This document shows positions 1 through 64,000 of a stretch of 64,000 bases of DNA, piece after piece (the stretch's first letter is position 1; each line of letters opens with the position of its first letter). The stretch lies in the NCBI GenBank assembly GCA_905178155.1, contig CAJINV010000011.1, forward strand, positions 1,949,939-2,013,938. The letters run 5' to 3'. The stretch is from Amoebophrya sp. A120. Its lineage: Eukaryota; Protista; Dinoflagellata. The notes below the pieces were generated by a model. The model worked only from the letters and a program-made list of their open reading frames with translations, made no database searches and had not been told where the DNA came from. The translations under genes were made by a program, and so were the position numbers.

Positions 1-3000
1 GCAGTAGAAGTACAGCTGGGAAGCTGCTGGTGCAGCATCTGGGCAAATTGCAGGCTGTTCTGCTGCAGCTGCGTCGTGAGGCTCGTGCTATCCAATCTGC
101 TTGGAGGCAACATCGCTAGTACGCCCTGATGTTGATTCCCGCTCTTCATGAGCGCCGCCGGGTCAGCCGGGAGGGAGAAGGTGCGCTGCAACTCCCGCGA
201 TTTGCCCGAATTCCGGGCGGCCGGGACGAAACCAGCCACGCCATTCGCGTTCGGGGCCGACTGCGCAGAGGGCTGGTCCGGAAGCTTCGGCAGCGGGTGA
301 GAAGTATTATTATACTGAAGATGGTGCGCCGGCAGGGGCTGGCCAGTAGTCGAAGTCGTGGTTCCCCGAGCGGTAGTTGCCATTTGATCTGAGATTCAGT
401 GTTCATCTTTTTATCCTCGCAAGGCTGAGCAATTGCGATCGTCTACAAGATCACTAAAACAACATCTTCGGTACTATATCAATTTGATTGACCAGAACGA
501 AAAATCCCAAAATTTACCTTGTCCGTGTTCGGCCTTCTTTGCGTCCTCGCCGGTAGAGGTTTTCATCCCCTCCACTCTCGAAGCATTTTGTCCTGGCACG
601 TTTTGTTCGCCCTGCTGTCCATTTGGCGACGCAGAAGGCAACTTGAACGGTGGTGGGGGCGGTGGGGGGCCTGAAAATACTCGCTTTATGTTGTATTGAT
701 GTGATAAATATGTCGTGTGTGTAGTGGCCACCTCGCAGCGGTGATGTACAACTTCGTAGGTACGTGATTCCGTAGATTTCTTTTTCAAATATGCATCGGA
801 CTGACAAGGAGAGGCAAACAAAATTGTGTCAGTACACATTCCCTTCTTGGTCAATCGCCTCGGTGGCGGTCCAGCGGCCTCTGGAATGAACGGTGCCAGC
901 ACAAGGTCGTTCGGAAACGGCAAGAGGGTATGAGAGTGAAAAGAAAATTAAGAACTAATTTCCTTTATTGTTATGTCACTTTCTGATCAACTACACATCA
1001 GTTCATCCAGAACGTGAAATTCCCTTCTGCGAGTAGTATCTTGCTATTATGCCAGACAAATCGAGAACCAAACCCCCTTCTAAAAAAACGATGAACAGCG
1101 GGCAGTGCGCTAGTGCTGTAGTACTGTCACTCACGAGTTGTATACATCAGTCTTGCTTTAGCTTTTTCTGGTGCATGCTGACAATGTATGAATTGATAGT
1201 GACAGGCTGAAACGTCACTTAAGCGGGATGAAAGTAGTTCTCCTCCACTTTCGTAGGCAGCTGGCAGCGGCGTAAACCCCGGGGTCGTGAGCGACGCGTC
1301 TGTAGTGACGTCGTGTGTAGTGTCTTCTGATGTTGTGAAGAAGACGGGATGAAAGAAACGCCAATGCTATATAAATAGCTTTCATCAAGGTAAATAACAA
1401 TCTGTACCCGTGTGCATCCCGGTGAGCTGGCTCTGGTTCAGCATGTGCGCTGCCGCGGAGGAGACCATCGCTATGGAAGCGTCAGGATTGAAATCGTCAA
1501 AGTTGAAATAACTTGTAATGCATAAAATCGATACCAGTTGGAAGCCCACTTTCTAAGCGGCTTTTGTCATGCTGCTTTGTCGCCGACGACTGCTTTTGTC
1601 ATGCTACTCTGGCAGCTCTATCGCAGACCCAAAACAGGCTGACAGTCGGCCGCGCTTGCCGTCCCTGCAAGAGAGGCACTTCATGCCTTGCAGTTTATGC
1701 ATGAGAAATTATTTCAACTTTGTCGATTTCGATCCTGACGCTTCCATAATCGCGGCCGTAGTCGTAGAAGTGTTCAAAGCCGAAACCGTATGAGAGTGCA
1801 CAACTCCCCCTCCCCCGCACTTCTCATGCAAGATCCCAAATGCAAGCGCCGCTTTGTGGCACCCTTTGCATGACAGACTTCGCCGGAAGAAGGCGCCCAA
1901 AGAACAGTACTACAACACTAGGTGCCTGAACTTGTCATGCGGAGCCCCCACGCGCGCTGGTGTTTGTATTGCTGTAGTGTATGCCATACAAATGAGGGCA
2001 TGGGGAGTTCTTGTGCATTCTCATAAACCGGGGAGGCGAGGGCGGTAGACTGGTCCGCGCGGTTCTTTAACTGCTGCCCATAGTTCGGCACGTGCTTCTG
2101 GCGCTGCTTCCGCGGAAGCACAATGGCGCAACGGAGCTCGGCTTCCTGTTGAAATGGAAGTAGTTTTGTTGGACGATAAGGCCCGCGTTTATTCCATTTG
2201 ATTTTTACCACAAGTACGTTAGCATGATAAAAGCGTTTTTTGACTCTCATTCTTCATTCCTATTTCTTTCCCCGGAACAAGTGGAAACACTGTACTGTTG
2301 TACACTATGAGCGTAGCGGCAGTTGGCGCCGTAGCTGCACTTTTCCGGGTTGTTGCACATCTTGGTTTTCATAAACGCCTTGGTCGACTGCAGCTCCGAC
2401 TTCAAATGCGCATACGTACATATCCTGTGTAAACACGTCCCCACCCCAGAGTTGTCATGCTAAACAAAATGCGACACACTTTGCCCCCCCATTGTACCAT
2501 GGCCGTCATGCGGATTTGCAGTGACAGGAAGATTTGTAATGCGCATGTCCATGCCAGGCATTACCAATCGCGTTTTGGAATTTGTGATGCTCTAAACAGG
2601 ATAAGCAGATGGATTTGTGATGCGATTGCCCTTGCTAACATGCACTACACTACGGACTGCAACTTGTCATGCGTGGCTCCCAAAACTTCTGGATTCGTGT
2701 TGCTAAGATCCCAACTTGATTTTCGCTTGGGGACGTTTTTACATATGATAGTACAGTAGGGGTTGTCACACCGGTCCCACTTCAGCAGGTCCGGACACAT
2801 GGCAGTGCGGGTCTGTGTAGAAGTTTTTGCGCTAAGTAATCTTTCAGTTGTCACTCAATTCGAATTTTTTCAGCCGTCCCATCATGATGGGTGAACTGAT
2901 AGATACCCCCGTTTTGCTCTTCAGTCTCGCGCTCCTAAACATGAATTTGTATAAGCAAATGGAAAGACAACTATAATCCGTCGTAGCAAACAAAACAGAT

Positions 3001-3952
3001 AGTGCAGCAGAATGTTCATTCTCATTGAAACACTCTACTACATATAAAGATACAAGATCCGGCTTGGGCCGCAGCTCGTCGTAGCTGTGCGCGTGATGGC
3101 AGCTTTCCCCCCACCGGCACTCGCCGTTTAGGTGATAGAAGCACATTATGCATTGCAAGCATGTCTGGAAAAATGCGCGATTTTTCATGCTAGTATGGCA
3201 TGACACTGAGCTCTGTATTGGGTAGGGCCAACATCGGTCACGCACAAACGCTGCTTCTCATGCGAAATACGCAACACAGAGCCACGGAAAAATCTGTAAT
3301 GCTTGCTGGCGCAACATAATTACAGTGTGCTTTACTAATCACTGACATGCACCATCACAGGTTTCCAGAAAATCCAGACATATTTGCAATTCATACACAT
3401 TTGCGTCTTGTAGAGTTCCGTGTTCGCCTTTTGCCGTATGGAAGCGTCAGGTTTGAAATCGTCAAAGTTGAAATAATTTGTAATGCATAAAATGCATGAC
3501 CCGAGGCACGTGTGTTGCAGAGCAGGCAAGTGAGGCCGATTGTAAGCCTGTTGGGGGCTACAGCTCGAGCTGCTAAAGTAGCATGAGAAAATCACTCTTC
3601 TTTGCCTAAACAGCGTGACAAACTGGATTTAGGGACCACCGAAATTTGTCATGCACCACTTGGAAACTGGGTTCCAACTGGCGTCCATTTTATGCATGAC
3701 AAATTATTTCAACTTTGTCGATTTCAACTCTGACACATCCATATGCCGTTTTGTCGAGGTAGTGGCCTGTTTAGAAGAAGGCATGAGCAGTCCACCTCCA
3801 CCGCCACCGGCAGTTGCGCTGTTCATACCAGCACCCATCCCTTGTTTCCCACCATTCCCAGCCCCCAACGGCGCGCCGGTTGGGCCACAGGGCGGACAGA
3901 TCAGAGGCGGTGGCACCGCCATGGTCCCCATTATCTGGGAAAACGGATCCAT
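1..3952 (-). CDS. Tandem CCCH zinc-finger RNA-binding protein (multi-exon; 3' end runs off the window)
   Basis: ATG at 3952 (MDPFSQIMG). Spliced sequence gives three CCCH fingers: YKTQMCFYHLNGECRWGESCHHAH, TRTAMCPDLLKWDRCDNPYCTYAH, KTKMCNNPEKCSYGANCRYAH. Five introners plus GT-AG introns at 2813-3053 and 2146-2303. P/Q-rich C-terminal exons below 1471 are less certain. Confidence 0.85.
1472..1748. mobile_element. Introner family A
   Basis: ~40-bp TIR TATGGAAGCGTCAGGAT..AAAGTTGAAATAA; TSD ATCGC. Confidence 0.92.
1789..2025. mobile_element. Introner family D
   Basis: TIR TATGAGA.TGCACAA; TSD AACCG. Confidence 0.88.
2421..2750. mobile_element. Introner family C
   Basis: TIR TATC..TGTAAA.ACGTCCCCA; TSD GTACA. 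Confidence 0.9.
3147..3395. mobile_element. Introner family B
   Basis: TIR TATG.ATTGCAA..ATGTCTGGA; TSD CACAT. Confidence 0.9.
3437..3743. mobile_element. Introner family A
   Basis: Family A TIR; TSD TGCCG. Confidence 0.92.
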
Positions 3953-4765: not shown

Positions 4766-6456
4766 TCAAATGTCCAACTCTTTCCCCCAGGGCCCGAGTT
4801 CCTTGACCCCCTCGATTGTCGCGAAGTAGCTGTCTACCAAGGCCTTCGGGACGTCCTGGACTTTTTCGTGCGACCACTTCGCCGCCCGCTTTTCTAGCAG
4901 CAGTGCCGACACCCCCTCCGCAAAGTCCGCCTCCGGTTGAGGCCGGAGGCAGTGCATGGCCATCTTGTACTCCGTTCGCAGCGCGCTGCGGAGCGTTTCC
5001 GCGTCGCTCCGGTGTCGCTCCATCGCCGCAAAACTCACCTTCAGCGACAGGGGGGACATGTCGCGGAGAAGTTTCAGGTACTTTTCCGCAAAATCAGTTT
5101 TCTCGTCCTCCAGCCGTTGCATCACCGCCTCTACCGATTCCGCACTGTGTCCGAAGCACCGGGAGATCAGTTCCGAGTCCGCACCGGAGATGGTCGGCTG
5201 AACACCCACAGAGTCGAGTTTCGAGACCTCTTTCACCACGACATCCTCCAGTTTTTCCAAATGCGACTGCACGGCGGTCGGGGTGACTGCCCCGGTGAAA
5301 CTTCCCAAGTGGGCCTTGACCGCCTCTAGATCCTGCTGCTTCACGAAGTGCGTCCCCACACCAAAATTTACGCAGTCCGCGGCGTTCAGTCGCGCGCCTG
5401 TGAGCCCGAGAAACCGGGCGATCGCAACGGGACTGCGGTTGGCAAGGCGCGACAGGCCCCAGGTCATGCCCACATCCGGAAACAAGCCGATCTTGGTTTC
5501 CGGCATGGCAAACATGGTTTTCTCAGTCACAATGCGGATGGGGTTGTGGAACCCCAACCCAACGCCGCCACCCATCACGATCTTGTCCCAAACGGACACC
5601 GTGACGACGTTCTCCTGATTCTTTTGCGCGATCTTGTAGTCCAGCTTGTACTCCTTGTGGAAGAACTCCCCGCCCAGAGTGCGATCGGCGCACTTACTCC
5701 CTATCCTGAGTAAAAACATACCCACACCAGAGTCAGGATGGGGATTTTGCAACACAAACCTAGGAGTTTTAGGAGTCACGCATGACAAGTTTCAGTCCGT
5801 AAGGTAGTGCAAGTTAGCAAGGAAAGCCGCATCACAAATCGACCTTCTGATCCTGTTTAGAGCATTACAAGTTCCCAAACACGATTGAAAATGCCTGTCA
5901 TAGTCATGGGGTTGCGCATCACAAATGTTCCTGTCATGGCAAATCTGCATGACAACTCTGGGGTGGGAACGTTTTTACACAGGATACTCCCGCGCAACGC
6001 TTCCGCCAGGGCCGCCACGTCGCCCCCGGCACAAAACGCCTTCTCGCCCGCGCCCTCCAGCCACACGATGGCGTCTTGGCGCGGGATGCGGTTCTCGTAA
6101 ATCTCCTCGAGAAGTTCAATCATCGTGAGGGAAAGGGAATTCAACTTTTTCGGCCGGTTCAGGGTCACGCAGTGCAGTTTGGATGAAGTCGTCGAGGATG
6201 TTGTTTTACTCGTACTCGTAGGATCGTACGGTGCATACAGTACCTCCGCCTCGGTTGTACTAGAGCTGCTTGCGGAGCTGAACCGGCGAGAGGTGGCAGA
6301 GGACGTCGTGGTCGTCGTGAGAGAACAAGGAAAGAGTCTTCGCTGCTGCAGGTTCATCTGCCGAGAAGAAGTAGAGGAACCTGACGCCAGAATCTGATGC
6401 GAAACCTGCAAGACACGGGTCGCAGGGCCGCGAAGGGGGGAGCAAGTTGGCGACAT
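4766..6456 (-). CDS. HIBCH: 3-hydroxyisobutyryl-CoA hydrolase, mitochondrial (crotonase family)
   Basis: Motifs TLNRPKKLNSLS, AFCAGGDV, IVMGGGVGL, FAMPETKIGLFPDVG, DFAEGVSALL; S/R-rich transit-peptide-like N-terminus. Removing introner 5702-5986 plus one TSD joins ...LRGS/KCADR... in frame. Confidence 0.93.
5702..5986. mobile_element. Introner family C
   Basis: TIR TATCCTG.GTAAAAAC; TSD CTCCC. Confidence 0.92.
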
Positions 6457-7499: not shown

Positions 7500-10400
7500 G
7501 CATCATGCCTGAAGATCTGAAGCCCTAATGAGTAAGCCCGTAAAAGAAGTCTCGCCCTGAAGATTCAGCAGTCTAAGCGCAGGACGGCGCCCCCTCTATC
7601 AGGACTTTATTTTTCATCATACACAGAAGTGGTTCTTGTTACAGTAAAAGTAGCACGATATTTGTTCTTCAAGACAGCACCCTTTCAGCCACGACGTTGT
7701 ACCAGTCCTGACTTATTCATTCTTACGGGTTGTTCTGCAGTGCCCCGGGGTGTACGCGGAATCTTGCTTGAAACAGACACTCCTCGACGTTCAGTAGCAC
7801 CTTCGGTTGGTCAAAAAACTTCCCAAAGTGCTCCTCTAACACGTCCAATACCTCGCCGGTAGCGTCCGCGGCCATTATGCTCAGTCCCCGCTTTTTCCAC
7901 GCCTCGAACAGCTCCTTCAGCTCCTTCAAAGCCGTCGCGTCGATGGAGTTAACCTTTGTAGGGGAACGAGTGATCGAATGTGAATGAGAACAAATACTTA
8001 CAATATGAATCGACACAATAACAGAGATAAATCCGGCGCATCACAACCACTGCGTATCTTCACTGAGTGATGCAAGAAAGTAAAAGAGAAACATCCCATG
8101 AAACAGGAGCTCGACGCCAAGGCGATAGACCACAACGACCAAGAGCAAGACCAAGAGGTGCTGGCGGTATATGCAACAATAAAAATGAACTCTCTCCTTC
8201 TACCTGGCTCCAAACGGTGACGATGACCTTGATTTCTCTCCACTGCTTTTCCCGTTGCAGCATTTTCTCCACTTCCTCCCGAATAAACTCGATATTTGCG
8301 AAGAACATGGACTATGCATTGCAAAAGCTGCATCGTACTTCTAGTATAAATCGCATGACAAATTTCCTGAGCATGAAATGGAATTTGTCATGCTGATTTC
8401 CCTTGGGAATCAGATTTGTCATGTAGATCTGCGATTAGTACGAGTGCGATGCTTTTGTATTTGATATGGACGCGCCGAAGGAAAAAATCACCACACCCTC
8501 GAATTGGTGCACGGTAATCTCCAGTTTTCGCCCCCGCTGCACGTCATACAGAGACGAGTGCTCGTCCAGTTTGCCCATTTGCGACACGCGGGGAAATATG
8601 GAATGCAAATATGTCTGGGTCTGGATGGATGCAACTTGTCATGCGAATCCGAATCATGCAAAAATCTGTGTTGCATGAGTGCCAAAAGCTGTCCACTTTC
8701 GACCAAATTGGGAGAGAGTTTCTGATGCAGGATAGGCATGACCACAGAGACCTCACAGAGTCTGCCATGCTAGGTTTCGCATTCCAGACTTTGACTTCAA
8801 CTTCATGGGTCATGGAAACCTTGCATGACAAGTTTACACTCTTCCAGACCCAGACATATTTGCAATCCATAGGAAAGACCACGTCGCTGATCATAATGAA
8901 GAGACTCAGCGCGACGGAGAGCGCCACACCCTGCAACACACCCTATGAAAAGGAAAAATCCCCCCACCCCATATCACAAAGGAAGTCTGTGATGCTGGAT
9001 TTGCGTACACAAATCAGATTTGTATTGCAGGAAGGCATTGCGGCCAGATCCCCAGGCTAGGGCGGGGCGTATGGATCTAGTTGGTCAGCATTGCAAACGG
9101 CTGACCTTTAGGCCCAACAGCATGACAAATCGCTTCCATGATGGGGCGGAAGCTTCTGCCCTTGTCTTCTTGCAAGACAAACATGATTTGTGGCCTCAAA
9201 TCAGCAACACAAATTTTCGGAAACATACCCTTTCGATATGGGGAGGGGGGATTTTTCCTTTTGATACGCCCAACAGAATGGTGCCACCACAAGCCAGGAC
9301 CCAGACCTGCGGACGAAAAGTTTCTTTTAGGTTGAGATTCATTTCATCGGCGCTGAGCATTTATTTTTCCTTGTCGTTCGTGTCCTCAGCAACAGATTAT
9401 TGTGTTCTTTCTAGTCGTATCTGTACCAAACCGAAATTATGCAGCACACGACCAAACCAGGAAAAAAAACGCTGCTAGTAGAATTAAGTACATTCAAAAA
9501 ATTTAAAGATGAGTACTAGTTTACTACTGTACCAAAATATCCCGGTAGAATCCCACCACCGCCGTGGTTGGTAGCTTTGGTATATTTATTGTGTAGTCGC
9601 TCGTGCTGCCGCGCTGCACATCCCCTCCACCTCCCGATTGTTGTACTATGGATTGGTTTGTGCCGCTGCCCTCCTTTCGCTCTTTCGATGGGGAAAGCAA
9701 GGCCGACCGCTGGAACGAGGGAACCTGCTTTATCCTGGCCTCGGCGAATTCGGTGGCCATTTCCGCAAAGTCTGCGTCCACCCCGCCCTGCGTGAGCTCG
9801 CCAAGAGACCCTAGATTCTTGTTCAGACCGCCGTTGGTTCCGACGTTTTCCGAGGACAATATTCTCCGGATACCAGAACGCGATTTGGACACACTCAAGG
9901 GAGACGACCGCGGGGAGAGTCCTGCGGTCAAGGTGTTGACGCTTTGCGAAGCCGGGATGTTCATGTTTAATAGCAGGGGCTGCTTCAAATCAGCAACGTT
10001 TGCCGTCGGAGAGAGCGCATTGTTGGTGTTGCGGGCCGGGTTGCTTGTGTCCTCGTTTGCTGTGGTATAGGTATTGAAATCAGTAATTTATCAAAATTGG
10101 AGCAGAACAAATGAAGGTATAAACGAAAGCAAAACTGACTCGTCACAGCCAGCACAGTCGGCCGCACACTAAAGCAGCATGACTCTTGTGTGATGATCAT
10201 ATATCCATCCAAATTGTATTCATTTCAAGCTGCTCACCTGGCGAGCTATCCGGCAGAAGTGCCCCGGGCATTTCTACCATCACCGGCAAGTTCGGCGAAG
10301 AGCCTGCCCTGCCAGAAGCGGACGCGCGGGCAGGAGACCCAAGGCCGTCCTTCAAGCTGGAGGACGGCGGGCTGGGTTCCCGACTGCTTATCCTCCGGAC

Positions 10401-12522
10401 CACCTGCTCCACTTGTTCCTTGGTTTTCTCCTGAATTTTCGACGTTTTTATCAGCCAGAAGAGGTAGGGGAAGTCCTGGAGATTCGTGCACGCGAGGATG
10501 ATAATGCCGGACAGCATATCCTATGGGAAAACGTCGCAACCCCATAACTGTCATGCAAATCTGCATGCTGAAAATGTTTCTCATGCAGAGCCCCATGACA
10601 AGCGTGGCTTTCTATTCGCGTTTTGGAATTTGTAATGCTCCAATCAGCACAATAGGCTAGGTCTGTGATGCTGCTGAACAAGCTAAACTGGATTACACTA
10701 CAAGGCAAGACTTGTCATGCGCAAGAACCAAAGGTGGCTGATTTGTCTAGCAGATTTCCCATCTTGACTATCGGATGAGGACGTCTTTTTGCTCAGGATA
10801 CAGCACACACTTGGGAATCCAGAAAATGGCGGACGAGAAGAAGATCTATCCTGTGCAAAAGTATCGTACTCGTAGTAATTGCATTCCTGCATTACAAATT
10901 TTTTTCAAAAGGTAAATCCGCATGACAAATTTTATTTCTCATGCTGAGGAAATTTGTATTGCATTTATACGATTACGATACTTTTGCAATGCATAAGATC
11001 AGGCCGCTGGCAACGACGCAGGTGGCGACCAGCCCGCCGATCTGCGAATTGATGCCCAACATCGGCAACAACGCGGCACGGGAGAGGGAACCGGACACCG
11101 GAAACGACTGGAAAAATCCGCCCGTGATCCCCGCGATCCCCAGGGCGATGGCTTCCTGGCTTGCCTTGATACTGTACCCCTGTTGCAGGGCGACCCGGCG
11201 GGAGGAGCTGAAAGTGGTGATGAACGAGGTCAGCGCGATGAGCAGGGAGCCGGGGAGCAGGGAAACAAACGTGACGGAATCCGGCACGTACTCCCAGGGC
11301 GGCGTGAAGCCGGGCACGCCTTGCGGCACCGGGCCGACCACGTTCACGACCAACCCCGTTTCTTGGCTGTCGTTGACCGCGCCCGGGGTGCGGAGGGAAT
11401 ACACCAAGCCGCCGAAAAACAGTACGACAAAGAGCTCCTTGAAATCCAGAGACTGCAGCAAAATTTTTGCCCAGGTCTCTTCCCGCTTCTTTAACGAGGC
11501 CTTCAGCTGTTAAGGATAGTGATCAAAAAAAAATTTGAAGAAATGCCGGATCTGCAGAAGATGATCATGCCGTACAAAATCTTAAAAGCAAAGTACAAAT
11601 TTCTCATTCACACCCTGGAGTCGCGAAATTTGAATCATTCCCAGGAAGTTGCCCTAGTTCTTCTTGATGTCAACAACATAGAAAAATCACATGAAATTAC
11701 AATTAGAATTGAACCCAACTATAATACCGCTTTCGATTTGTGCAAGACGGCCATGACACAGAGCCCTATTGCCACCGCCGCCCAGTTCACCGCCGTTATG
11801 TTCGCAAAGGTGCCTGTCAAAATTGGCACCACGCCTTTCGCGTTGTACAAATGTTTGTCCAGCCCCGTGAGTTGCTTGCTCTGCGTGGCTGCAATGATCA
11901 GGCTCGCGCCGGAAATGAAGCCCGACAGGGTCGGCTGGGATAAGAACCGGACCAGAAACGTCAGTTTCGTCACCCCGAAAATGAAAATCAGCAGCCCGGT
12001 GGTCAAGGCCAAGTAGCTCGCGACCCGGGTTCGCACCTCGATGTCCCCGTACTTGGACAGCTGGTCAGCGATCATCACAGCAGCCACCGCACCGGAGGAG
12101 ATGGAGGCGTGGGGACTAGTGCCAAAGATCGCGTACATGATGGCCGGGCCGAGGGCGCAGTAGGGCCCCTGCACCGTGACGGTGGTCGCGATCGCGGCGT
12201 GGGCCATGGTCTGGCAGATCAGAATGAGCCCCACAATCACGCCGCCCACAATGTCGCCCTGCAGTTTTTTTCCGCAGTCGTAGTCGGGGAGCCACTTGGT
12301 AATCGGGACGTGGTCATTCACAAATTTTACCATCCGCGACTTCCCGATCTTGGCCTTTTCCTTCAGCGATTTCCTCGCTTTCTGCTCGATTACGTCCTCG
12401 ACGTAGGCCAGCGGCGGGGGAACAATCAGGTCGTCGTCCTCCAGGTGGAGCATGTCCGAGCGGTCCATGCGGGACCGCGAATACGTGTAGTGGTCTTCAC
12501 CACTGATGCGCGCATCCACCAT
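7500..12522 (-). CDS. sulP: SulP/SLC26 sulfate-anion transporter with C-terminal STAS domain (ends approximate)
   Basis: GDIVGGVIVGLILICQTMAHA, YAIFGTSPHASI, FLSQPTLSGFISGA, FPVSGSLSRAAL, IFWIPKCVLSGIII; STAS: SMFFANIEFIRE...VNSIDATALKEL. Five introners plus GT-AG introns. The last exon (below 7725) is not resolved. Confidence 0.9.
8313..8466. mobile_element. Introner family F
   Basis: TIR TAT..A.T.CAAAAG..ATCG.ACT; TSD TGGAC. Confidence 0.88.
8597..8871. mobile_element. Introner family B
   Basis: TIR TATGGA.TGCAAATATGTCTGGGTCTGGA; TSD GGAAA. Confidence 0.92.
8944..9266. mobile_element. Introner family G
   Basis: TIR TAT.AAAAGGAAAAATCCCCCC.CCCCATATC; TSD CACCC/CGCCC. Confidence 0.9.
10517..10800. 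mobile_element. Introner family C
   Basis: TIR TATCCT; TSD CAGCA. Confidence 0.88.
10847..10995. mobile_element. Introner family F
   Basis: TIR TGCAAAAGTATCGTA.TCGTA; TSD AGATC. Confidence 0.9.
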
Positions 12523-50658: not shown

Positions 50659-50991
50659 GTTTATTGCATCGAATGGAGTTGTTTCATACGGTTACGGATA
50701 CGCGGATATAAATCATCTACAGGAATTTTCAGAACGCAATAAATGTTGAATCGTGATCGTCTTAGTTCGTTGTTTAGAAGCCGAAGCATAACGCTGGAAG
50801 ATGACTACAGGTCGTCCAATTTCGGACTCACCTCAATCGGAAAGAGTTGGAAGCAAGAAACAAGTTCAGGCACAAATACCGCAAGAAGCCTCGCTGTAGT
50901 TAAGACCTCCCTTTCACTTAGTAAGCTCATCACTCCTGATGATCGCTCCATGTACTCGCACACGTCCGACCGTCTGTTATTTCATCTACCA

Positions 50992-52730: not shown

Positions 52731-55700
52731 TTAACTACTTAGAGAAGCCTTACCCTTTTCAGGGCCCGCAGAAGGGGGCCCGTCTAGGGAAAGCACACGC
52801 CCCAAACCGAACGAGGGACTGCCGGCGGAGCTACTACGAGGAGAAGCGGTACTTGTACTACTAGCATTGCTATCGTCATCGTCCAGTGTTTCAGCCGGTT
52901 GCTTCTGCGTCGCTGTCATTTTCATTTCTACGTCGCGGACTGTCCAAGACGAACCGCTCGCGCGCTTTGCGATGATTTTAAGTTTGTCGCCCAGCGGCTT
53001 TTGAGAAAATTCGAGCAATTCCTGTTTTTTCCGTAAAACCACCTCCGTGGTTTGTCCCATTCCGGCAATTACGGAGAATACATTCTCCGCGAAATTCGCG
53101 AAGCGCTCAATCGGAATTTTTCTTTTTACTTGTGACAAAACCTTTCTGAAAACATCGGCCACTTGTTTACCCAACGCCTTGCCAAGCACCTCGATAAGCT
53201 TCGACCTCTTTTTGCTACTCCAGTTGATAACAAAGCACTTGCCGTTAGGTCCTCCAAACGCGAGCGCCCACAGAAGCTTATTCGGAGATGATCCTGCAGT
53301 TGAAACCTTGGGGCCACTGTCCGTCTTCGGCAAATAACGAGTTCGGGTTTCCTTTTCCAGGTCTATAATTAATTCAAGTTCCCTCCGAACTCGATCATCA
53401 GCAGAAGCTTGCAGCGTTTCAAGTTCAAGCTCTAGCTGCCGCTGCTTCTCCTGCAAAGAGCGTATTTCTGGGCTTTTTTGAAAAAGTATTCTTTCTGCCT
53501 GATATTTTCTGACGTCCACGCCCTCCTCAGTCGACAAAGGTCTGTATTCATGATGACCTGAATCTCCTGAATCCACATCGACATCGCCCTGATCTCCCTG
53601 AGGCGGAGAAGGTAAAGTAGGAGTCTTTCGCTCCTCGGCACGTTTGTGTATCCGGCGCACAAGAGTCTTCCGAAGAGCTTCATATGTTAAGAAACCTTCT
53701 GGAGAAAATTCTTCTTCTTCATCGGCCGCGTGGATTTCCTTAAGCAGCTCCTGCCCGTCTTCATCGAAAAACCGAAAGTTCTCTTCCATTACCAGCGTTT
53801 TCTGGTAAGCGATAAAATCCAGAATCTGTCGGTCGAGTTCTACTAGTAGTTCTCCGGACATTGAAGAGTAGAAAGTCGCGAAGAGGCTGGAAAGAGACGG
53901 ACCGAAGAGTGGCACAGCTGCAAGTGCCGACCGCACAGGTGAAAGGATACGATCTATAACGAGTTCTTTCAGGGCCTTCGTGAACTCGTCGACGCATATG
54001 TCGCCGCTGTTGTCCGCGTCCATGTTGGGCATCTCCGAAACGGCGATAGACTTGGCCATGTCGGCCATCGACTCGGGCATTGCATCGAGTATCTTTTGGA
54101 GGCTATCGGCCAGGGTAGCCATGAGACCCTCGGCGTTCTGGTTCATCAGTTCATCGTACTGGGCATGTAGGATATCGAAAAAACTCGGAATCGGTAATAC
54201 CAGGTAGCCGTTTTCGTAATGTTTGTTCATGATCGCTTGTATTTTTGTTCTTTTATCTTTTTCAGACCCATCGGCTTGCGGATACTGAGCGCCGCTTTCA
54301 AGAAGTTCCATGGTTGCGCTCCATTTAGCACAACCATGCAATGCGGAGATTTTCCGCGCTATTCCAGTGACGTACTCCGCTTCGGCCATGTCGTTCTTGA
54401 CTCCGTAGGAGTTAGCGAAAAACATGTACATGCACCGTTTTCCCTTCCCCTCTGGCGGCGCGGCCTGCACGTCCCTCGCCTGACGGGGATGCAGTACTTC
54501 TGCGATTGCTTCGTCGAGAGCGTGTGTCGACGCGAGGATTTCCCCCATGTCCTGCGCACGGGACCGGCGATCCGGGTTGTCTCTCTGTGATGCTAGATAC
54601 GTCAGAAGCAAGTACGGGTCGTTGCACTTCGGCATCCAAAATTTTTTTAGATTTGCTTTGTTGCTGTAATCTCCATGGATCCCCGCCGGCGAACAGGCCT
54701 GTGCGCCGATCATTTCAACTGCGCTGGCTTCTTTCCCGACCCTGTGATAACGTAGATAAGGGCCAAATATTCATCTCGCTCGATTAAAACAAGAGAGGAC
54801 GCATCGTGTGTGCACGCAATATTGTTTGCAAAGACAATCTCCAGGATGGTGTCCTCCGGGGGAGGGCAGACCGCAATGTAAATGGGCATCTCATACCTGC
54901 CGTTCCCGTTTCTAGTAAGTACTACAAACTTCCCTATATCAAGCTCAAGCGTTCGCTCACGTCTGCGAAAAACAAACTACTTACATACTTTTTGTAGTCT
55001 GCAAATTCTTGTTGCTATTCAGAAATAATTCGGCACAAGAGACTCATGAGCCTTCATATATCAAAGTCCAACAAGTGTAGACGTCTTGTTCTCGAAACCA
55101 AATTAGTAAAAAAGTGAGCAAGTAGCAACACCCTTTCTCCTCGCTTGATGTGGCCGGCGCGAGAGGCTTCCCCGTCGGATGCGCACTAACGTCGCTGTGC
55201 CTGTTTGGGTTTACCTGGAGGTATAGGGAATTATATATTTTGCAGGTTCTTCAATTCAACACTGGGAAGGGGAGCCCGGACCTCTAGTTTCTGCAGCCTC
55301 CTAATCTATATCTATTCGCCGCGGTTCTACATCTACTCCAGCTCCAGCAGTAAAATACAGAAAGCCAAACGAAAAAAACAGCCATGCCATAACGGAGAGA
55401 TGAAGCTGGGAGACTCAACAGTACTTAAGGCGCCAAGCAAGGGCCCTGGTTTTCTTAGATAAGCTCGTTTTCCCGAGCGTCTGACAGAAAGCCAAGTGGT
55501 TGGGGTGTTCTCGAAGTGTTTGTGCTTGTACATATTAAAGCTTTGTTTACAGTGAAGCCCACGTGTAGTGCCTGACTACTTATACCTCCCGAAAGCTTTC
55601 TCGTTCCGCAGGCAGGTCGCCTCCGCCATTCGCCTCGCTCGGGGCCGAGTCTTTGTGTTCCGGTTGGGCGACCGCGGTACTGCCACTGGTCTCGTGTTTG

Positions 55701-58700
55701 GACCTGGAAACAAAGGAAATTGGAACTAATCTCACTGCTCCTTTTCAACCCAAGAAAGCGCCTCTGTGCTATTGCTCAAAACAGACAGGATGATGCCAGT
55801 GGCACTAGCCCTGGTGACAAAATAGTTGCGAGCAGTCGGTCTGCGTCAAGGATCTGGGCCTTTGCGGTGAAAAAAGGACCCAGCATTGAGCTGCACCTGC
55901 AAACCGAACGCCCTTGTTCGTGGTAAAAAATTTTCGACTTCGAGGATAAACATGCAACTCATACAACATCCACTCACGCTTAATACCCTCCGGCTTCGCT
56001 TGGTGCGGCGGGTGCGAGGGGCTTCTCCGCCGGCGAGTCTTTTGGGCCCGGGACTTTCTCTGTCTGTTTTTTGAATTCGCCGGACCTGTCGCTGTGTGGG
56101 TTTACCTGGTGTGGGATTTCCAACATCAACTCAAAGCAATCAAGCCCGAACTACTTCGCACTTTCTGCAGCTTTGTAGCTGTAGTCCGTTATCGGAAAAT
56201 TTACAAAAGACAGCAACGAATCAAACGAAAACAACAGCGATGAAGAAGTGGTTGGGTGCCGCGCGCTGACAATCATGGTCTTTCTATATATTATATGCAC
56301 AAAGAAGTCGTGAAACGTACAAACCGCAAATGCTGCTGCTGCTTTAACATTACTATTATCTTCGATCTATTCCTGGGCACGCAAAACAAAGTAGAGAGCG
56401 TTTCGCAAAATTATACATAGAGTTCCCCTTACAACTACTTAGGCCTCCGCCTACTTCCTGACTATACCTCGCGAAAGCTTTCTTGTTCCGCACCTAGATC
56501 GGCCGCGCCCGTCGCCTCGCTGGGCACCACACCCCCTTGTTCCTCTTTAGCGACCGCGGTACTGCCACTGGACTCGTCTTTGTACCTGAAAACAAACGAA
56601 ATTGAAACTAGTCTCACTGCTCTTTTTCACCCCGAAGCGCCTCGGTGTCTAAGTCTATGACGAAAGCACGCTATTTAATAAAACAAACAGGACGACGTCA
56701 CTCGCCGTCGCTCTGTTGATGAAATAGTGATGGACAGTTGGTCTGCGTTCAGTCTTAATTGGTCCTCTACGACGAACAAAGGCCGAGCATTCAGCAGCAC
56801 GTGGAAACCGAGCCCTTTTGTTTCTGTTATATTAAACTTCAACTTTCGGCTTTGAGGATGGACATGCAATTCATATACGAAATTCTACTCTCCGCTAACG
56901 CTTAGTACCCTCGTCCGGCGTCACTTGGTGCAGCGGGTGCGAGGGGCTTCTCCGCTGGCGAGCGCGAGTCTTTTGGGCCCGGGGCTTCCTGTGTCTGCTC
57001 CTTGAATTCGCTCGTCGAGCTGTCGCTGTTGGGGTTTACCTGGTGTGGATCATTTTGTGAGGTTTTTCAACTGAAAATCAACACTGGTGAGAGACCAAGA
57101 GCTCCCACAACTTTCTGTAGCCCTACAAGTACAAGTACTTTCTTCGTGACATCAAAACACTCCTGTACACTTACAGCGAAACTGCAACAGCGCTACTAGT
57201 TCCCACAGGTAAAAAAGTACCTCGAGAAAGTTTTCTCGTTCCGCAGCCAAGTCGTTCTCACCCGTTGCCTCGCTCGGCGGCGAGTCCTTGTGTTCCTGTT
57301 GGCCGACTGAGGTACTGGCACTGGTCCCGTGTTCTTTATACCTGAACAAAGTTCATAAGCGCTTTTTCATCGCGAATTGCCTCGTCATGTGAAGCTAAAA
57401 CAGACTCGATGTTAGTGTTACACGACAAAACAATAACGAGCAGAAGTAGTCAGGCTACTTTCGATTTCAAAAATTTAACCTTTACGAAAAAGTCCAAACA
57501 TTCAAGTGCAACTGCAAGTGCAAGAAAAATTACGACTTTCTCACGGCAGTCGAGCATGCAACGCGTAGAAAATCTACCCTAGTCTAGTGCTTAATAGTAC
57601 CCTGCCACTTCGCCTGGTGTGGTGGGTGCGAGGGGCTTTCCTTCCGCCGATGCCTTCGATCCCGGTACCGGGGCCGCATCGACCTCGGCGTTGCCGCCAT
57701 TCTGGTGTCGTGCTCGTGTGTGCTATTTTGAAAGGTTGACACAAATATAAAACTTCAAGAAGCGCACAGTCATGCGCCAAGATGTCAAAGGAAGTCACTG
57801 AGTGAGACAAGTTTACTGACTACTAACTAAAGTGCGTTGTTAATATATAGGCGTGAAAATTTGGTTTCCCATACAGTAAACGAAGGGTAAGCTATTTCAT
57901 CATGATTTATGCTACGTGTAGTATACATCGCCAGTAGCCAGTATGCATTGCAAATATGTCTGCGTCTGGAAACATGCGAACTTGTGGGGCCCTCTGTCGG
58001 TGCCAGTCCCACAAAAATATATCATGCACAAATAGCACAAGCTTGCCACTTCTAGCCACACTGAGTAAGGAGCATTCCTCATGCATAGTAGGCATCGCAA
58101 GACCCATCGCCATGCAGAAGTACCTCCGTCCTGCATGACAACGCTCAGCGTTTCTATTCCAGACCCTGACATATTTGCAGTTGATAGCCACGTCCGCCTC
58201 GCCTTTCGGCTTGCTGACCTGCGAGTCGGCACCTTGTTGCTGTTTTTGTATCCCATGAAAAAACTGCTTCACTGTGATCTGATGGCATGGCTTTACAAGA
58301 TCATTTGCATCACATTTCAGTTTGCTGTTACAGAAACTTTGCCTCCCAAGGGAAAACATGCTCAAAAGTCCAATGGTCTGCAATTGTAACAAGACAAATA
58401 GTTCTGTGCTCCATTCTATGCGTCACAAGTTCACAGCAAAGCAGAGTTTTGTCTCGATATCTTGGGACAAGGAAGTACTAGACTGCTCCGTTTGCGTGTA
58501 CCTATCGGCGAAAAAAATTGTGTTAGTGTAGGATAATGATATTATTTGTGAAATTAAAATATTGCCACACATCTACACTTGTCATACCAGACAAGCACGA
58601 AGTCCCTGTTCTTCATATGCGACGACGTTTGGACATACTTACACTTTCCGCCCGGCAGGGAAGCAAATTTGTCATGCTTTCACAGCAACAATTCTGCTGC

Positions 58701-60151
58701 ACTAACGCTGTCTGGTTTCCTCATGGATAATATTAGTACCTCGAAGAAAACAGAGGACGAGACGTCGCGACAGAGTTCGCGGGTAAAGACTTGTTCACTT
58801 TATTGCGCAAAGTTCGTCGGGTAATTCCTTATACTTACCTAATATCATGAAGCTTTAATATATTTATATTTGTTGTAAAAAAACCGCGTACAGTCGTATC
58901 CTGAGTAAACACGCACGCACCCCAGCGAGCTCGTCGTACTACAAATTTGGATATTCTAAATTCGAACAAAAAAGTGGATCTGCAGTGGTGCACCTGCAAC
59001 TGCTAGCTTAAAATTATGACTAGATCCAACTGGTGTCTTGTCATGCACGATTCGCAGAGCTGCTTAATTCGTCGTGTGTAATCTTGACTCTCTGCGGCGG
59101 GGTCGTGGGTAAGTTTTCACATAGGATAAGTCGGATTTTTTCTTCCATCTTTGTTTCGCTTCGTGTTCGTCGTTGGGAATCATACGAAAAAAGTGTTTTA
59201 TCACTGTAAAATAAGGATTTTATATCCATTGCAAATTTCGCACGACAAGTTTGTTCTATTTGAATGATACACGTTAGCACCAACATTTCTGCGACATACA
59301 TTCATCTGGATCTGCATTTAAAAAAGTTTACAGTGAATAAACAGTTTTTTCTATACGATAGGGTGCGTAGCGACTGTTGTGTAACGCCGCCAAGTATTCG
59401 ATTGAAGGCCCGGCGTATGAGAGTGCACAACTACGTCCCCTCCCACTCCCCCTCGTTGTGTTGTGCATCACAGTAGTAGTACCAAGCCCACTTCACTGCT
59501 TGGCACTGGTTGGGCATGGCACTGGTTGCGCATGGCAGGTTCTAGGAGTAGCGGGAGGATCCGAAGGACCGCGGCACAAACCTGCGTAAACTTGTCACAC
59601 AAAATGAACTTGCACTTTCGCCAGCCCTTTTGTTGTTACGAAAAAGAAAAATGCCCCTGAAATTATGATTCGGAGAGGAAGAAAGTTGTGCGTTCTCATA
59701 TGCTCCTGCCGCCAAGGCTCGCTTGTCCCCCGCCCGTATCTTGTTCTGCCTGTATGTATGGGCAATTTGGTAAAGATTTGTTTTTACTTTTAGCGAACGC
59801 CAGCTACTTCTATTACACGTTGACTCGATAACTAAAAATGCATACAAGAAATATACGAGTTGTGGGTACTATAGCTTTCTCATGGAGAGAATGGCTCCCT
59901 TCGTGTCATGTGCAGTTGGTCTTGGTGGTCTACTTAGCAGTATAGTAGTTATTAACCACTCTTTTGAATTTTCATCTTGATGGAGAAACGACGCTACCGA
60001 GGAAAGATACCTTTTCGTTCCTCCTGCCCAACGCGGCGACGAGCGTCGGCCCGCCGCCCGTGCCGCCCCAAACGACCAGAGTTGTAAAGGTGAAGAAGAA
60101 CTGGGACGCGCACCAGCACGTCAGGACCGCGAGAAGCTTGAACATTTTCAT
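52731..60151 (-). CDS. Probable secreted protein: signal-peptide-like exon, tandem two-exon repeats, then a 660-aa exon with an EF-hand and coiled coil
   Basis: Exon 52731-54740 is a long ORF containing DADNSGDICVDEF. Upstream GT-AG repeat exons at 55130-57720; first exon MKMFKLLAVLTCWCASQFFF at 60151. Linking all exons into one gene is inferred. Confidence 0.5.
55130..57720 (-). repeat. Tandem duplication of a two-exon module including its introns (~0.7-0.9-kb unit, 3+ copies)
   Basis: GGTGCGAGGGGCTT-type block near 55155, 56010, 56936, 57625; GAAAG..TTCTCGTTCCGCA...GGTACTG block near 55591, 56473, 57226. Confidence 0.8.
57942..58186. mobile_element. Introner family B
   Basis: Family B TIR; TSD GCCAG/GCCAC. 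Confidence 0.86.
58249..58459. mobile_element. Introner family E
   Basis: Family E TIR; TSD TTTTG/TCTTG. Confidence 0.83.
58897..59128. mobile_element. Introner family C (diverged)
   Basis: TATCCT ends; TSD AGTCG. Confidence 0.82.
59178..59360. mobile_element. Family E-like element, degenerate ends
   Basis: GAAAAAA.TGTTT..TCACTGTAAA inverted repeat; TSD unclear. Confidence 0.65.
59416..59700. mobile_element. Family D element without recognisable TSD
   Basis: TIR TATGAGA..GCACAACT; flanks CGGCG/TGCTC. Confidence 0.75.
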
Positions 60152-61735
60152 CTCCTGATGGATCGCTTTAGTTTTATGCCATAGAAAACGTCAAAGCACA
60201 CCCGTTTACTATGATTCGTATTCTCTTACTCACCGCGAGATGCAAAAGTTTTATTTGCCTGCTGTTGTGTCTCGTTGGCTCTGTTTGGCATCATGACGGG
60301 TTGTTTTCTTGGCACCGTTCTCATGCCACATGTTCCGAGTTGCATTCTCGATTTTGCATCACAGAAAGTCGACCCTGCAGCGGATCATCAATAACAACAC
60401 TTTTTTTCTGTAAAAGCAACACATTTTTTTTCTTCTTAAAGGCATGGGTGTTGTACTTTTTATTTTCTGCATGATACGCTTGCTCCGTTTCTTACACCAC
60501 GACGGGAAAAGCTATGCTCGACGTTGTGAAAGAAATTTTCGAACCAACTACACGGAGACCGCTTGGTGCGCCAGCACCTCCCGTGCCAACAAAGTCTGCG
60601 CGAAAAAACTACCTTACCTCTTCAGCTTCTGAAATCATAAATTCCCGAAGAATAAAGCCAGAATGTTGAAGAGCAGCCCAACACACTTTTTAATGCAATT
60701 ACAATTCGAATTTGATGATACCGTAGTTTGTTCAAGAAACAGCCAGTTTCAGTCCGACGTAAGTCCGGCGGATCAATTAAGTTTGCGTCCGTCCGATGTG
60801 AGACCAGCGGATGAGAACTAAACAAAGAGGAAGCCTGCTGGAGTAAGATTAACACTAATTTCATAATTTCAATTTTATTCATTGGAGAATAGTACTACTA
60901 TTCACTACGCCTTGGTCTGGTTTATGCGGGGCGCTCCTTCGATGTGTTTCGAAAGAAAATGCGCTGAGTTCTTCGGTAGACACGGCTTGCCCGCTTTACT
61001 TCTCGGAATAATTGACAACTTCGTGTCGTGAAGAAACGTTCTACTTCCAAAAAGAGACCCAAGCTCGCTTGTTTCTTGCCATTTTCACAGGAAGATCTTC
61101 TCGCGCACGCCTCTATGTAAAAACCACCTGGATCTTCACAACGTCTTCAGTTGCCGGAGCAGCTCGGCTTTTCTCTACTGTCTGTCCTTGAGATCGCTTG
61201 TATGTTGCACATCAGCTCGGTCTATTATGTAACCTTGATCAATTATACAGGGAGCACAGTTGCACCCCTCGTTACAACTTCACTCAACGCAGGATGAACC
61301 TGTTTGATCTGCCGTTGGTCTCCTGAAAATTATGGTATAAGTAGTACTTCTTCGAAAATCCAACATCGCGCGGTTCAGGTTGACAGGTCTGACAACTTCC
61401 TTCTACTTCTTGTCTTCGTGATACAACTTTTGTCATTCTCGTCCTACGATCTTACATCTACAGTGGTAGTATAGCGAAGTCTTGCAGTCGCAGCTGTCAA
61501 AATTGAAGAAAAATCATTTCATCCGAACCTTCTTGTTCATAGATATATCAAACAAACGGTTACTTTCAATGTCCAATTCAAGTCATGCGTGCAGTCTGAT
61601 TTTTGCTCGCGTCGTCCTCCGCGTGCACACCGAAACTCACTGTTGAAACGAAACCATCGTATACTGATGTAAGGAGCATTGAAACAAATTTTGCAGCAAG
61701 CAGGAGCTTCACCTCTCCTCGTTGTGCTACTTTCT

Positions 61736-63753
61736 TCAAATCTTTTCTAGGAATGAATTCGTGTTTGAAGACTGCTCTGACGCCGCGCCGTCCCCCGTAG
61801 CGGCTTTGGCTTCCGCGTCGGCGGCCCCGTCCACCTCCTCGTTTTCATCCTGCATGAACGCGGTCTGGCCCTCGTTGTCAACACCCTGCTCCGCGCCATC
61901 ATCATCTTGATCATATGCAGTGCAAATATGTCTGTAATGCTGCGCTTGGTGGAATTGGATTCTAAAAAAAATTTGTATTGCATGAACAGCAAGAAAAATC
62001 CAGTTTGTGCTAAGTACGCGGAGAGGGCAAAATTTCTCATGCGGTAGAGGCATCACGATGTCCTCTAAAAAACTGTGATGCTAGGGCATGCATTGCAGGC
62101 TTCATGGGTCATCTTCCAAAATATGCATGTCAAACTTGACAATCTTCCAGACCCAGACATTTTTGCAGTTGATAGATCACCGGCCTGCTCCATTTCCCGT
62201 TCCTCCTCCGGTAAATTGGTGCCGTCACCCGGGTTATCAAGTGCAAATATCCCTGGAGGTCTGGAAACTTGTAATGCTGGATTGGGAATAGTGAATTTCT
62301 TGTAATGCACAGACACGCATGCGAAATCATCTCTGCGCTGCCTAGTGTTGCGTTTACCGCATGACGATGACTACACACTGCGTTTTTGCATGACAGGCAA
62401 AAGGGTCTTTTCTTGGACACGCATCACAAGCTTTGCAGTCTGTGACTGTGTCTGTCATGCCAGACAAGCATGACAAACCTTGCATTTTTCAAGACCCAGA
62501 CGTATTTGCAATCCATACGGGTACTTGCCCGCGATGCACACGAGGTTGACGCAGTACCGGTTTCCCTGCTCGTCCGGCATGTTGTGGCCCAGGTGGATCG
62601 ACGGGATCTCGATCACTTTTCCCACTTTCGTGTGGCTGGTTGGCATATGCATTGCAAGAGTATCGGTATCGCACTCGTAGTAATCGTATACAAATCCTAT
62701 TCTCAAATTGATGTCATGCGCTTTTATACTAGTAAGTACGATAGTACTTATGCAGTCCATATGGCACCGTGATGATCTCAGAGGGCACCGGATTCAGATT
62801 CGGCGACACCTGGCCCCGGTAGGAGGGGTGCCGCAGCGGGTTGTGCTCCGAGACCGACTTCGGAATTGGCTCACCGCCCCCCGTGGCGCCGCCGAAAGAC
62901 TCCGGGTTGGTTTCGTTTGCGGTCACATTCTATGCATTGCAACTATGTCTGGTTCTGGAAGGATGCACGGTTTGTCATGCATATTTTGCATGGCCCATGA
63001 CGCCTGTAATGCATGCTCTAGCATCACAGATTTTTAGAGGGCTTCCTGATGCACATTCCGCATGAGAAATGCCCTGCCCGCGTAGCACAAACCAGACTCC
63101 TCTTGCTAGTCATGCAATACAGATTTTTTTGGAATCCGAAGACAGCATCACAAGTCACAACCTTCCAGAAGACATATTTGCAAGGCATACGTTCATCACG
63201 CGGTCGAAGTTCACCTCGTCGTCGCGGAACGAAGGCCACCCGTGGTACTTGGACTCCAGGTAGAACTCCAGGTAGGACCGCGGGTTCGGCCCGAATCCCG
63301 GGACCCGGAACAGCTCCTCGTTCGGGTCAGAAGAGGAGTAGAAGCTCATGTAGGCGGTGCCGTTGGGGAGCTCCTCGGGGAGCGCGTACCCGGTGCCGGT
63401 GAAGTTGAGTCCCTGGTAGAACGAGGCCTGCGGCTCGGCCAGGCGCTGGGGCACGGTGCAGCACACGTTCACGGCCGTCGCCTCGTCGACCAACCAGCGG
63501 AGCTGCGGCCGCTCGGGCAGGCAGGACACGGCCCCAAAGGGAACCTCCTCCGGTTTGGGGTACTCCTTCTGCTTCTTCCGTTCTTGCAGCGTCGTTTTCT
63601 TCTGCATCACCGAGGACTGCGGATCATTCCTGGCATCCTCGACCGCTCCGTCGACGGGGCGCTTCTTGTCGTTCAACAAATCTTTGGCGGTCCTCGTCTC
63701 CTGGTTACTTCGCTCGTCCTCTTCGCTGTTCCTTGTCGTTGACGTAACTGCAT
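61736..63753 (-). CDS. msrB: MsrB/SelR-like protein paralog (5' part outside the window)
   Basis: LRWLVDEATAVNVCC...ESKYHGWPSFRDDEV...HLGHNMPDEQGNRYCVNLVCIAG; four complete introners removed in frame; acidic tail. Confidence 0.72.
61914..62174. mobile_element. Introner family B
   Basis: Family B TIR; TSD GATCA. Confidence 0.9.
62235..62517. mobile_element. Introner family B
   Basis: Family B TIR; TSD CGGGT. Confidence 0.9.
62646..62761. mobile_element. Introner family F (116 bp, smallest seen)
   Basis: Family F TIR; TSD TGGCA. Confidence 0.86.
62931..63189. mobile_element. Introner family B
   Basis: Family B TIR; TSD CATTC/CGTTC. Confidence 0.88.
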
Positions 63754-64000
63754 TATCAAATGCAAAAATGTCTGGGTCTGGAAGATTGCAACTTGTCATG
63801 CTAAAGCTGAAGCTCATGCAAAAATCTGTCTTGCATGATTACCAAAAGTCGTCCAGTTTTCACCAAGTCGGGAGGGAGTTTCTCATGCAGGATAGGTATG
63901 AGAGAGATCGCACAGAATCTGTCATGCTAGGTCCTGCATTCCAGACCTCATGAGTCATGGAAAAGCAGCATGACAAATCGCGCACTCTTCCAGACCCAGA
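63754..64000. mobile_element. Introner family B (right end just beyond the window)
   Basis: Left TIR TATCAAATGCAAAAATGTCTGGGTCTGGA; right TIR begins TTCCAGACCCAGA at the window end. Confidence 0.85.

Follow-up and report, generated by a model that had tools for sequence, protein, structure and literature searches.

A paired 13-bp motif in the introner elements of Amoebophrya A120 as a probable transposase-binding site

The introner elements in the 64-kb stretch of DNA analysed here, referred to below as the window, carry a common 13-bp motif, AAAYYT(G/C)TN(A/T)TGC, that is conserved and arranged with a stereotyped geometry. From sequence comparisons we consider it probable that this 13-mer is a subterminal double-stranded DNA site bound by the transposase of a single transposon class, one enzyme having moved all of the families. 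The elements fit the description of the A120 introner elements in PMC7789003 (Farhat et al. 2021), the text passages of which report ~30,000 of them in 1,954 families, amounting to 17% of the assembly, and state both introner movement and introner splicing as open questions. One motif and one end geometry in all families examined would reduce this diversity to one transposon class, likely served by one enzyme.

The motif and the class of elements that carries it

An earlier note on this DNA had drawn attention to an octamer, TGTVATGC, said to occur in every introner family and to be scarce elsewhere, including in the LINE. Its recurrence is real, with 162 matches in the 64-kb window against 7.5 ± 2.8 by chance (100 dinucleotide shuffles, the largest giving 16), or 195 for the four octamers quoted in the note taken together, and the coordinates given were correct (minus strand: 5780, 5829, 5862, 5916, 5947; plus strand: 1514, 1565, 1597); the true unit is longer, however, the octamer being the core of the 13-mer. 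Elements were sought by their ends only, without using the motif, and 48 of 53 candidates were retained, the five discarded being three that scored below 19, one that was 1173 bp long and one whose ends lacked TAT. Every one of the 48 holds at least one octamer, as claimed, and comparison of introners with the rest of the DNA gives a frequency far above background, 11.3/kb inside the elements (155 in 13.7 kb) against 0.8/kb outside (40 in 50.3 kb), element interiors containing 153 octamers where 200 shuffles give 3.4. Once hand-curated elements are added 16 octamers are left in the 47.2 kb outside, of which three fall in a further element at 25490-25760 and three in the 9.3-kb LINE ORF, and four RNA-supported CT..AC introns contain a single octamer in all, at 8038.

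The elements of the window, and last an ORF left without an assignment, are listed below; family labels A and C were equated with those of the earlier note by coordinates and the other letters are our own.

5702-5986: family C introner, 285 bp, 5-bp target site duplication (TSD), all five octamers TGTNATGC on the transcript strand, RNA skip 290 (285+5)
10517-10800: family C introner in the opposite orientation, five octamers, all antisense to the transcript, RNA skip 289 (284+5)
8313-8466: family E introner, 154 bp, RNA skip 159
8597-8871: family D introner, 275 bp, RNA skip 280
8944-9266: family G introner, 323 bp, first inward sites 44 and 55 bp from the ends, RNA skip 328
10847-10995: family E introner, 149 bp, RNA skip 154
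1472-1748, 3437-3743, 18117-18423, 48832-49161: family A copies, inward site 42-45 bp from either end
1789-2025, 59416-59700: family B copies
2421-2750, 26544-26823, 31948-32227, 48189-48486, 58897-59128: further family C copies
3147-3395, 17806-18058, 21323-21575, 22849-23101, 23809-24060, 25893-26148, 27919-28205, 28305-28557, 30613-30890, 33760-34012, 47863-48124, 50990-51246, 62235-62517: family D1 copies, ends at 33 and 40-42
13786-14077, 14141-14412, 15881-16140, 23220-23469, 24500-24773, 24912-25217, 27183-27474, 28610-28884, 31362-31613, 49206-49480, 57942-58186, 61914-62174, 62931-63189: further family D2 copies
from 63754: family D copy, truncated by the window end (64000)
22429-22582, 48559-48722, 62646-62761: further family E copies, the last of them deleted
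16714-17705: family E introner, 992 bp, enlarged by a nested TG..CA element at 16817-17647
22027-22359, 28970-29178, 49588-49909, 49942-50264: further family G copies
25267-25475, 27583-27809, 30989-31202, 31701-31911, 47569-47799, 58249-58459, 59179-59360: family H copies
32295-33240: TAT..ATA element, 946 bp, likely enlarged by a nested insertion, sites mainly close to its ends
25490-25760: further TAT-class element, left end decayed to TGT, 5-bp TSD, three octamers
52731-54770: ORF, 679 aa

In 146 independent loci at least one site is present in 430 of 432 end-defined elements, at 12.8 sites/kb inside elements and 0.97/kb outside, and the motif density is 0.25/kb in 521 kb outside element-like DNA. 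The motif was found in no other element type among 35 leftover clusters, and the nested TG..CA element carries its own, different repeated motif; over the 0.65 Mb examined, with few other repeat families as controls, the motif is specific to one transposon class. Viral contigs searched with two element-end patterns gave no match. A paired-motif pattern gave at least 120 matches in these contigs, nearly all 30 or 33 apart, which probably reflect codon repeats and were set aside.

All of the families start with TAT, end with ATA and are flanked by a 5-bp TSD. Every end begins TAT(C/G) and most follow TAT-N7-AAA, so that the terminal inverted repeats (TIRs) were wrongly described in the earlier note as unrelated. 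The logo of 864 ends, into which TAT and A-richness are built as requirements of the end finder, has C/G at position 4 (0.96), G at position 9 (0.83) and A at positions 11-13 (0.93-0.96); the A run is missing from family A ends and short in family B. Among 419 elements the TSD is perfect in 343 and has one mismatch in 76, without base preference, its length being agreed by flanks, RNA skips and an empty site. That site comes from locus L069, 99.4% identical to L018, which has a single target copy where L018 contains an element, and the elements are therefore mobile. The possibility that the TIR is a copy of the motif is ruled out by motif position 3 (T), matched by 1% of ends, and pairing of the TIRs does not appear as a selected trait, the seven variable bases of both ends matching 1964 times against 2000 ± 23 when permuted, with only family H above its null (209 vs 178). 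With motif and TIR set aside, little sequence resemblance is left between families (108 comparisons, mean z 0.29, the top values being 5.5 and 4.0), as had been noticed when the surrounding sequence was said to diverge while the motif persists, and the family consensuses have in common only 16-19-bp matches centred on the motif. Since so little else is shared, motif and spacing have outlasted the rest of the element.

Geometry and conservation of the sites

The geometry of the sites, in pairs and at set distances from the element end, is what is new here. The earlier note had suggested a look at spacing periodicity, and same-strand pairs 30-33 bp apart indeed number 53 in the window against 9.1 ± 2.8 expected, in seven of seven families; in 419 independent elements there are 455 against 71.7 ± 7.6, in 12 of 14 locus families, the pair being mostly missing from the other two. 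The spacing peaks at 31 bp, approximately three turns of DNA, and inverted partner sites lie 15-17 bp apart. The first site is mostly inward-facing and located 32-36, 39-46 or 55 bp from the element end, and end modules recur across families with sites at 33 (in), 48 (out), 64 (in) and 80 (out) or at 42, 57, 73 and 89; the clearest example of this lattice is at 28347-28385, where, counted from the end of element 28305, inward sites at +42 and +73 enclose an outward one at +57. A short motif is thus repeated near both ends and in both orientations, as in transposase-bound subterminal repeats. End distances are not exact multiples of the helical turn (family D peaks at 40-42), indels in the 31-bp linkers are not depleted (0.0075 vs 0.0067 per bp, p=0.27), and no family-level significance was obtained in the window for the 39-42 spacing (family D only) or for inverted pairs at 15-16 or 45-49.

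Conservation was also assessed column by column, another check that had been put forward, and substitution at the fixed motif letters proceeds at 0.25-0.43 times the pace seen in the other interior columns. The fixed letters change at rates of 0.0345 on tips and 0.0082 on inner branches, compared with 0.0806 and 0.0333 for other interior columns (370/476 elements). The tip-branch ratio is 0.43 (interval 0.38-0.49), ranging from 0.37 to 0.53 across branch-length bins; an initial dependence on branch length disappeared once columns were held out, and parsimony may be responsible for the lower value on inner branches. Sense and antisense sites are constrained alike (77/2378 vs 75/2030), and across the 461 element bases of the L018/L069 pair there are 2 substitutions, neither of them in a motif.

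Movement of the elements and their removal from RNA

In the mechanism that we favour the sites would be occupied by transposase subunits that bring the two ends together, cleave at TAT/ATA and integrate the element with a 5-bp stagger, and new copies would be founded only by copies keeping the array, such that the motif persists as linkers drift; splicing would depend on the ends and not on the array. The enzyme might be, as a guess, an integrase-like DDE protein of the IS3EU/GingerRoot kind, which has TA..TA ends. In favour of a transposase site are the termini and TSD length shared by all families, the confinement of the motif to the class, the equal constraint in sense and antisense, the lack of covariation and the mobility of the elements. 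Counting against it are the tip-branch constraint, flat over branch lengths, since host selection after insertion predicts the same, the linker indels, the end distances off helical multiples, the two families mostly without the pair, and the fact that the spacing could come from one ancestral end by inheritance. Neither the 14 window ORFs nor 100 of the 112 locus ORFs of at least 300 aa (114 ORFs scanned) yielded a transposase, and no long coding or autonomous element came to light in the window or the independent loci; according to the text passages of PMC7789003, too, A120 has yielded no transposase, and mobilisation by one is argued against there. Two sites 31 bp apart provide a ready bait for the protein, and the array a signature for the autonomous element.

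The elements are removed from RNA at non-canonical junctions that leave exactly one TSD copy and have no bias to making GT/AG. In all six cases listed above, out of a larger set with 25 further joints, the element plus 5 nt is skipped in transcript-like contigs of run X1, and contigs that skip introners also skip CT..AC introns. Reading frames are interrupted by 324 of 394 callable elements. It is conceivable, if unlikely, that the array is bound by a host protein with affinity for double-stranded DNA, perhaps a chromatin protein or a transposase since domesticated, which brings the ends together in a loop and designates the element for removal during transcription, the motif being kept by the host after insertion. 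Such a protein would agree with the flat tip-branch ratio, the junctions, the interrupted reading frames, the missing strand bias, which suits any DNA binder, and, within the passages of PMC7789003 drawn on here, the undetected U1 and the lack of a transposase in A120. Non-coding copies, however, have a like ratio (0.36, interval 0.17-0.55, n=12), copies with mismatched TSDs change equally in motif and other columns (0.012 vs 0.013, both intervals including 0), and linker indels are tolerated. Moreover, copies with 0-1 strong sites appear to break long frames, having lengths that would shift the frame (window 62646, L017 2517-2678, L018 887-1096); the first of these, the deleted family E copy at 62646-62761, has one bare octamer and no site scoring at least 9 and is likely still spliced, since it sits in a minus-strand reading frame of 387 codons that its length would shift.

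We also observe insertions of +6, made up of the 5-bp duplication and one further base, and of +3, that look like in-frame excision footprints, 21 of 26 clean 6-nt insertions matching a neighbouring 6-mer at five or more positions where 0.6 are expected. If they are such footprints they would speak for movement by cut and paste and for a way in which mobile introns could change proteins rapidly. We give little credence to the bolder scheme in which a single transposase-derived protein, reading the helically spaced array, both moves the elements and, retained by the host, pairs ends on DNA in transcription, thereby setting tens of thousands of intron boundaries that have neither consensus nor U1, the +3/+6 footprints driving fast protein evolution.

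The earlier note had read the motif as a shared cis code, of which the conserved motif is real, with a transposase site as the best fit; the short stems offered beside it are unsupported, and so is a splicing factor if strand-specific. RBFOX-like factors read GCAUG, and a motif working on RNA, through stems or as the site of such a factor, would be helped by the better folding of interiors relative to shuffles (median z -2.2) and by predicted pairing of 73% of motif bases vs 59% of others, 38% motif-to-motif. We nevertheless hold action on RNA to be very unlikely: the paired letters do not covary, variable letters of inverted pairs being complementary in 157/398 cases vs 152 permuted and outermost sites in 71/193 vs 70.5; identical octamers occur in only 11/97 head-to-head pairs; and common motif variants break GCATG. 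The motif tracks the element and not the transcript, which leaves a strand-specific factor unsupported: the 129 plus and 120 minus sites of the window lie nearly all within minus-strand genes, constraint is equal in sense and antisense, and the oppositely oriented family C copies (5702-5986 and 10517-10800) are both skipped in RNA.

That the motif is the passive legacy of one ancestral element end, without present function, is hardly credible; like end modules recur across families and a few masked cross-family similarities remain, but the reduced rate at the fixed letters already largely refutes it and the consensuses match only around the motif. Excision from transcribed DNA, as of the internal eliminated sequences of ciliates, with the array as recognition code, can practically be dismissed: a single remaining TSD copy, no splice consensus and indifference to orientation would suit it, but element sequence is found both in raw RNA reads (runs X8-X10 map to element copies in part) and in transcript-like contigs, and two separate assemblies include the elements.

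Comparison with known systems

There is nothing unusual in a DNA transposon having subterminal binding sites, the TnpA sites of En/Spm and the sites of Ac/Ds being further repeated motifs of this kind, and Tn7 makes a 5-bp target duplication. The present elements are like the A120 introners of PMC7789003 in having TAT, seven variable bases and AAA, short direct repeats, a length of ~240 nt, non-canonical splicing and many families, whereas an internal motif, a spacing rule or any common feature beyond the end logo is absent from the passages of that account. A literature search over abstracts and text passages found motif or footprints nowhere described; passages of PMC12130899 report that one introner family of A120 has TIRs and an ORF resembling an integrase.

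The probable transposase site has counterparts in several systems, each cited from excerpts. IS3EU/GingerRoot elements (PMC10045372) have short TIRs and TA..TA termini, found here as well, but a TSD usually of 6 bp as opposed to 5 bp. Tn7-like ends (PMC10201428) contain several internal sites, with a spacing of TnsB sites that matters at ~10-bp intervals and is related to helical pitch, and are unequal; these elements differ in being bacterial, with TG termini and longer sites, and the likeness implies no homology. The Emigrant MITE, a non-autonomous element, has a short motif repeated near its ends in either orientation, and its subterminal motifs are bound by the pogo-like Lemi1 protein (PMC1636448). 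Unlike such MITEs, introner elements are removed as introns, and their motif spans at least 14 families with non-aligning linkers and is held at a stereotyped spacing.

The internal motif and its distribution

The octamer TGT(C/G/A)ATGC is found at the positions quoted in the earlier note; its four variants give 195 matches in the window, and TGTVATGC alone gives 162 as compared with 7.5 ± 2.8 in shuffles. In order to avoid circularity, introners were defined by their ends only, retaining 48 of 53 candidates, and all 48 contain the octamer (11.3/kb inside vs 0.8/kb outside). Modelled as a weight matrix on 57 curated elements, it lengthens to the 13-mer AAAYYT(G/C)T(C/G/A)(A/T)TGC, with 248 sites vs 2.6 in shuffles, the matrix having been trained on the same set. 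An independent set of 146 loci from one metagenome assembly was retrieved by the end pattern of family D, which is therefore over-represented; here a site is present in 430 of the 432 elements defined by their ends. When given 418 kb of shuffled DNA, the end-only finder made 4 false calls. One of the two site-free elements (L014, 1639-1749) is a 111-bp near-perfect palindrome with TAT..ATA ends and a 5-bp target-site duplication (TSD). Decayed introner-like relics at 34071-34250, 46040-46200, 58503-58800 and 60230-60420 of the window keep 1-2 octamers and have lost clean ends.

Other features of the window
16817-17647: TG..CA element nested in a family E introner; 831 bp, 5-bp TSD, 48-bp TIRs
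34316-43633, minus strand: LINE-like open frame; single frame, 3105 codons, reverse transcriptase domain; introner-free
44470-45295: duplicated block of ~320 bp, flanking the window's single N on either side
52731-54770: open frame of 679 codons; introner-free stretch

The block duplication around the N is probably an assembly join; immediately upstream of it, at about 43940-44230, is a tract of short-unit repeats. No Pfam family scored above cut-off for the 679-codon frame. By eye, 55100-57750 holds 3-4 units in tandem, diverged from one another and each about 850-900 bp long.

Spacing and conservation of the sites

In the window, 53 pairs of sites on the same strand are 30-33 bp apart vs 9.1 expected, and they are found in 7 of 7 families; the 419 locus elements have 455 such pairs vs 71.7, with a peak at 31. 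In 12 of 14 locus families roughly half of the copies, or more, have such a pair, the exceptions being families 7 (0/7 copies) and 9 (1/5). In the 419 elements head-to-head pairs are concentrated at 15-16 and 47-48 bp, and tail-to-tail pairs at 17, 35, 48 and 66 bp. With family E left out, the first site faces inward at 32-36 or 39-46 bp in 63 of 104 ends in the window, and in family G the first sites are 44 and 55 bp from the ends. All these distances come near to whole turns of the DNA without being exact. Masked families cross-align poorly (mean z 0.29), and family consensuses have only motif-centred 16-19-mers in common.

Change rates were obtained from 370 of 476 aligned elements in 12 subfamilies, small clusters being left out. 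Relative to other interior columns, the rates on tips and inner branches are 0.43 and 0.25 for the fixed letters of the motif and 0.68 and 0.30 for bases 15-30; for TIR bases 4-10 the ratio is 1.2. Because the motif letters are slower, and base composition does not account for the difference, the shared code proposed earlier withstands the objection that motif columns might be no more conserved than their neighbors. At bases 4-10 of both ends the same few multi-base variants recur across subfamilies and families, and comparison of these bases between the two ends revealed no overall matching.

Element ends, removal and probable footprints

All elements begin with TAT, end with ATA and are flanked by a 5-bp duplication without base preference, and most have TAT-N7-AAA ends, establishing one terminal grammar across families that differ in bases 15-30 and linkers; the earlier description of their TIRs as unrelated is thus abandoned. 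Transcript-like contigs of sequencing run X1 skip six displayed elements, each skip being exactly element length plus 5, as well as four CT..AC introns. Long minus-strand frames are restored by deleting an element with one TSD (863 codons over 26216-30945, for example), and element lengths are even over the three frame classes (146/138/135). All clear-frame genes of the window lie on the minus strand, in agreement with co-oriented gene blocks reported for Amoebophrya (PMC7789003). A family E copy in L018 (4931-5080) is missing from near-identical L069, so that two haplotypes of about 99.4% identity differ in the presence of an intron; the TSD of the filled site is already mismatched at one position, which makes a precise loss and a new insertion equally plausible.

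Clean, distinct insertions in non-coding elements of the window and loci are predominantly of 3 (82) or 6 nt (26), with 32, 9, 14 and 4 of 1, 2, 4 and 5 nt; among deletions there is no 3/6-nt preference. The adjacent six bases are matched at ≥5 positions by 21 of 26 six-base insertions (0.6 expected), and 74 of 82 three-base insertions match their neighbors at ≥2 positions (30 expected); in form the insertions duplicate 2 or 5 bases and add a single one. Outside elements, in this genome's sequence alone, exact 5-mer repeats at lag 6 occur at 2.5/kb vs about 1.1/kb at lags 9, 12 and 15. We infer that the insertions are likely in-frame footprints of a 5-bp staggered cut arising from excision or abortive insertion. 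The pattern is evidence for mobility at the DNA level, of which Farhat et al. (PMC7789003) were doubtful.

Candidate readers of the motif and known systems

Motif direction goes with the element: of two family C copies with five octamers each, that at 5702 has them all sense and that at 10517 all antisense, and splicing removes both copies. Constraint is the same on both strands. Inverted site pairs show no covariation, which leaves the short stems suggested previously unsupported; predicted folding exceeds shuffles, as inverted repeats would give anyway. Judged from reading frames, copies with 0-1 strong sites still break long frames at frameshifting lengths. The simplest account is a reader of double-stranded DNA.

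We favor, with moderate confidence, the 13-mers as candidate transposase sites, for which there are precedents of transposase-bound subterminal sites (PMC1636448, PMC10201428). In favor of this reading, in 0.65 Mb of sequence the motif is restricted to TAT..ATA introners, and non-coding copies are constrained as coding ones are (n=12). The TG..CA element nested in a family E introner carries a different motif, CATCTTTTCAAAATTTG, repeated in both orientations, of which the 146 loci contain no exact copy. Against it, no transposase was found among 114 ORFs of the window and loci. A tip ratio that is flat across branch lengths and linker indels that are not depleted may also count against it, and a TSD-age test gave wide intervals. 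A putative host-retained DNA binder reading the motif is an unlikely alternative to transposase sites.

Introners themselves are already known, and the mechanism, likely of a known kind, would allow a standing question to be tested directly; for the internal 13-mer, spacing rule and footprint pattern we found no description in the literature searched, whose figures and some of whose supplements may bear on the point. By termini the closest superfamily is IS3EU/GingerRoot; its TSD, however, is 6 bp vs 5 bp here, so the elements are not assigned to it. The TAT-N7-AAA end pattern of Amoebophrya A120 introners (PMC7789003) matches that of most elements here.
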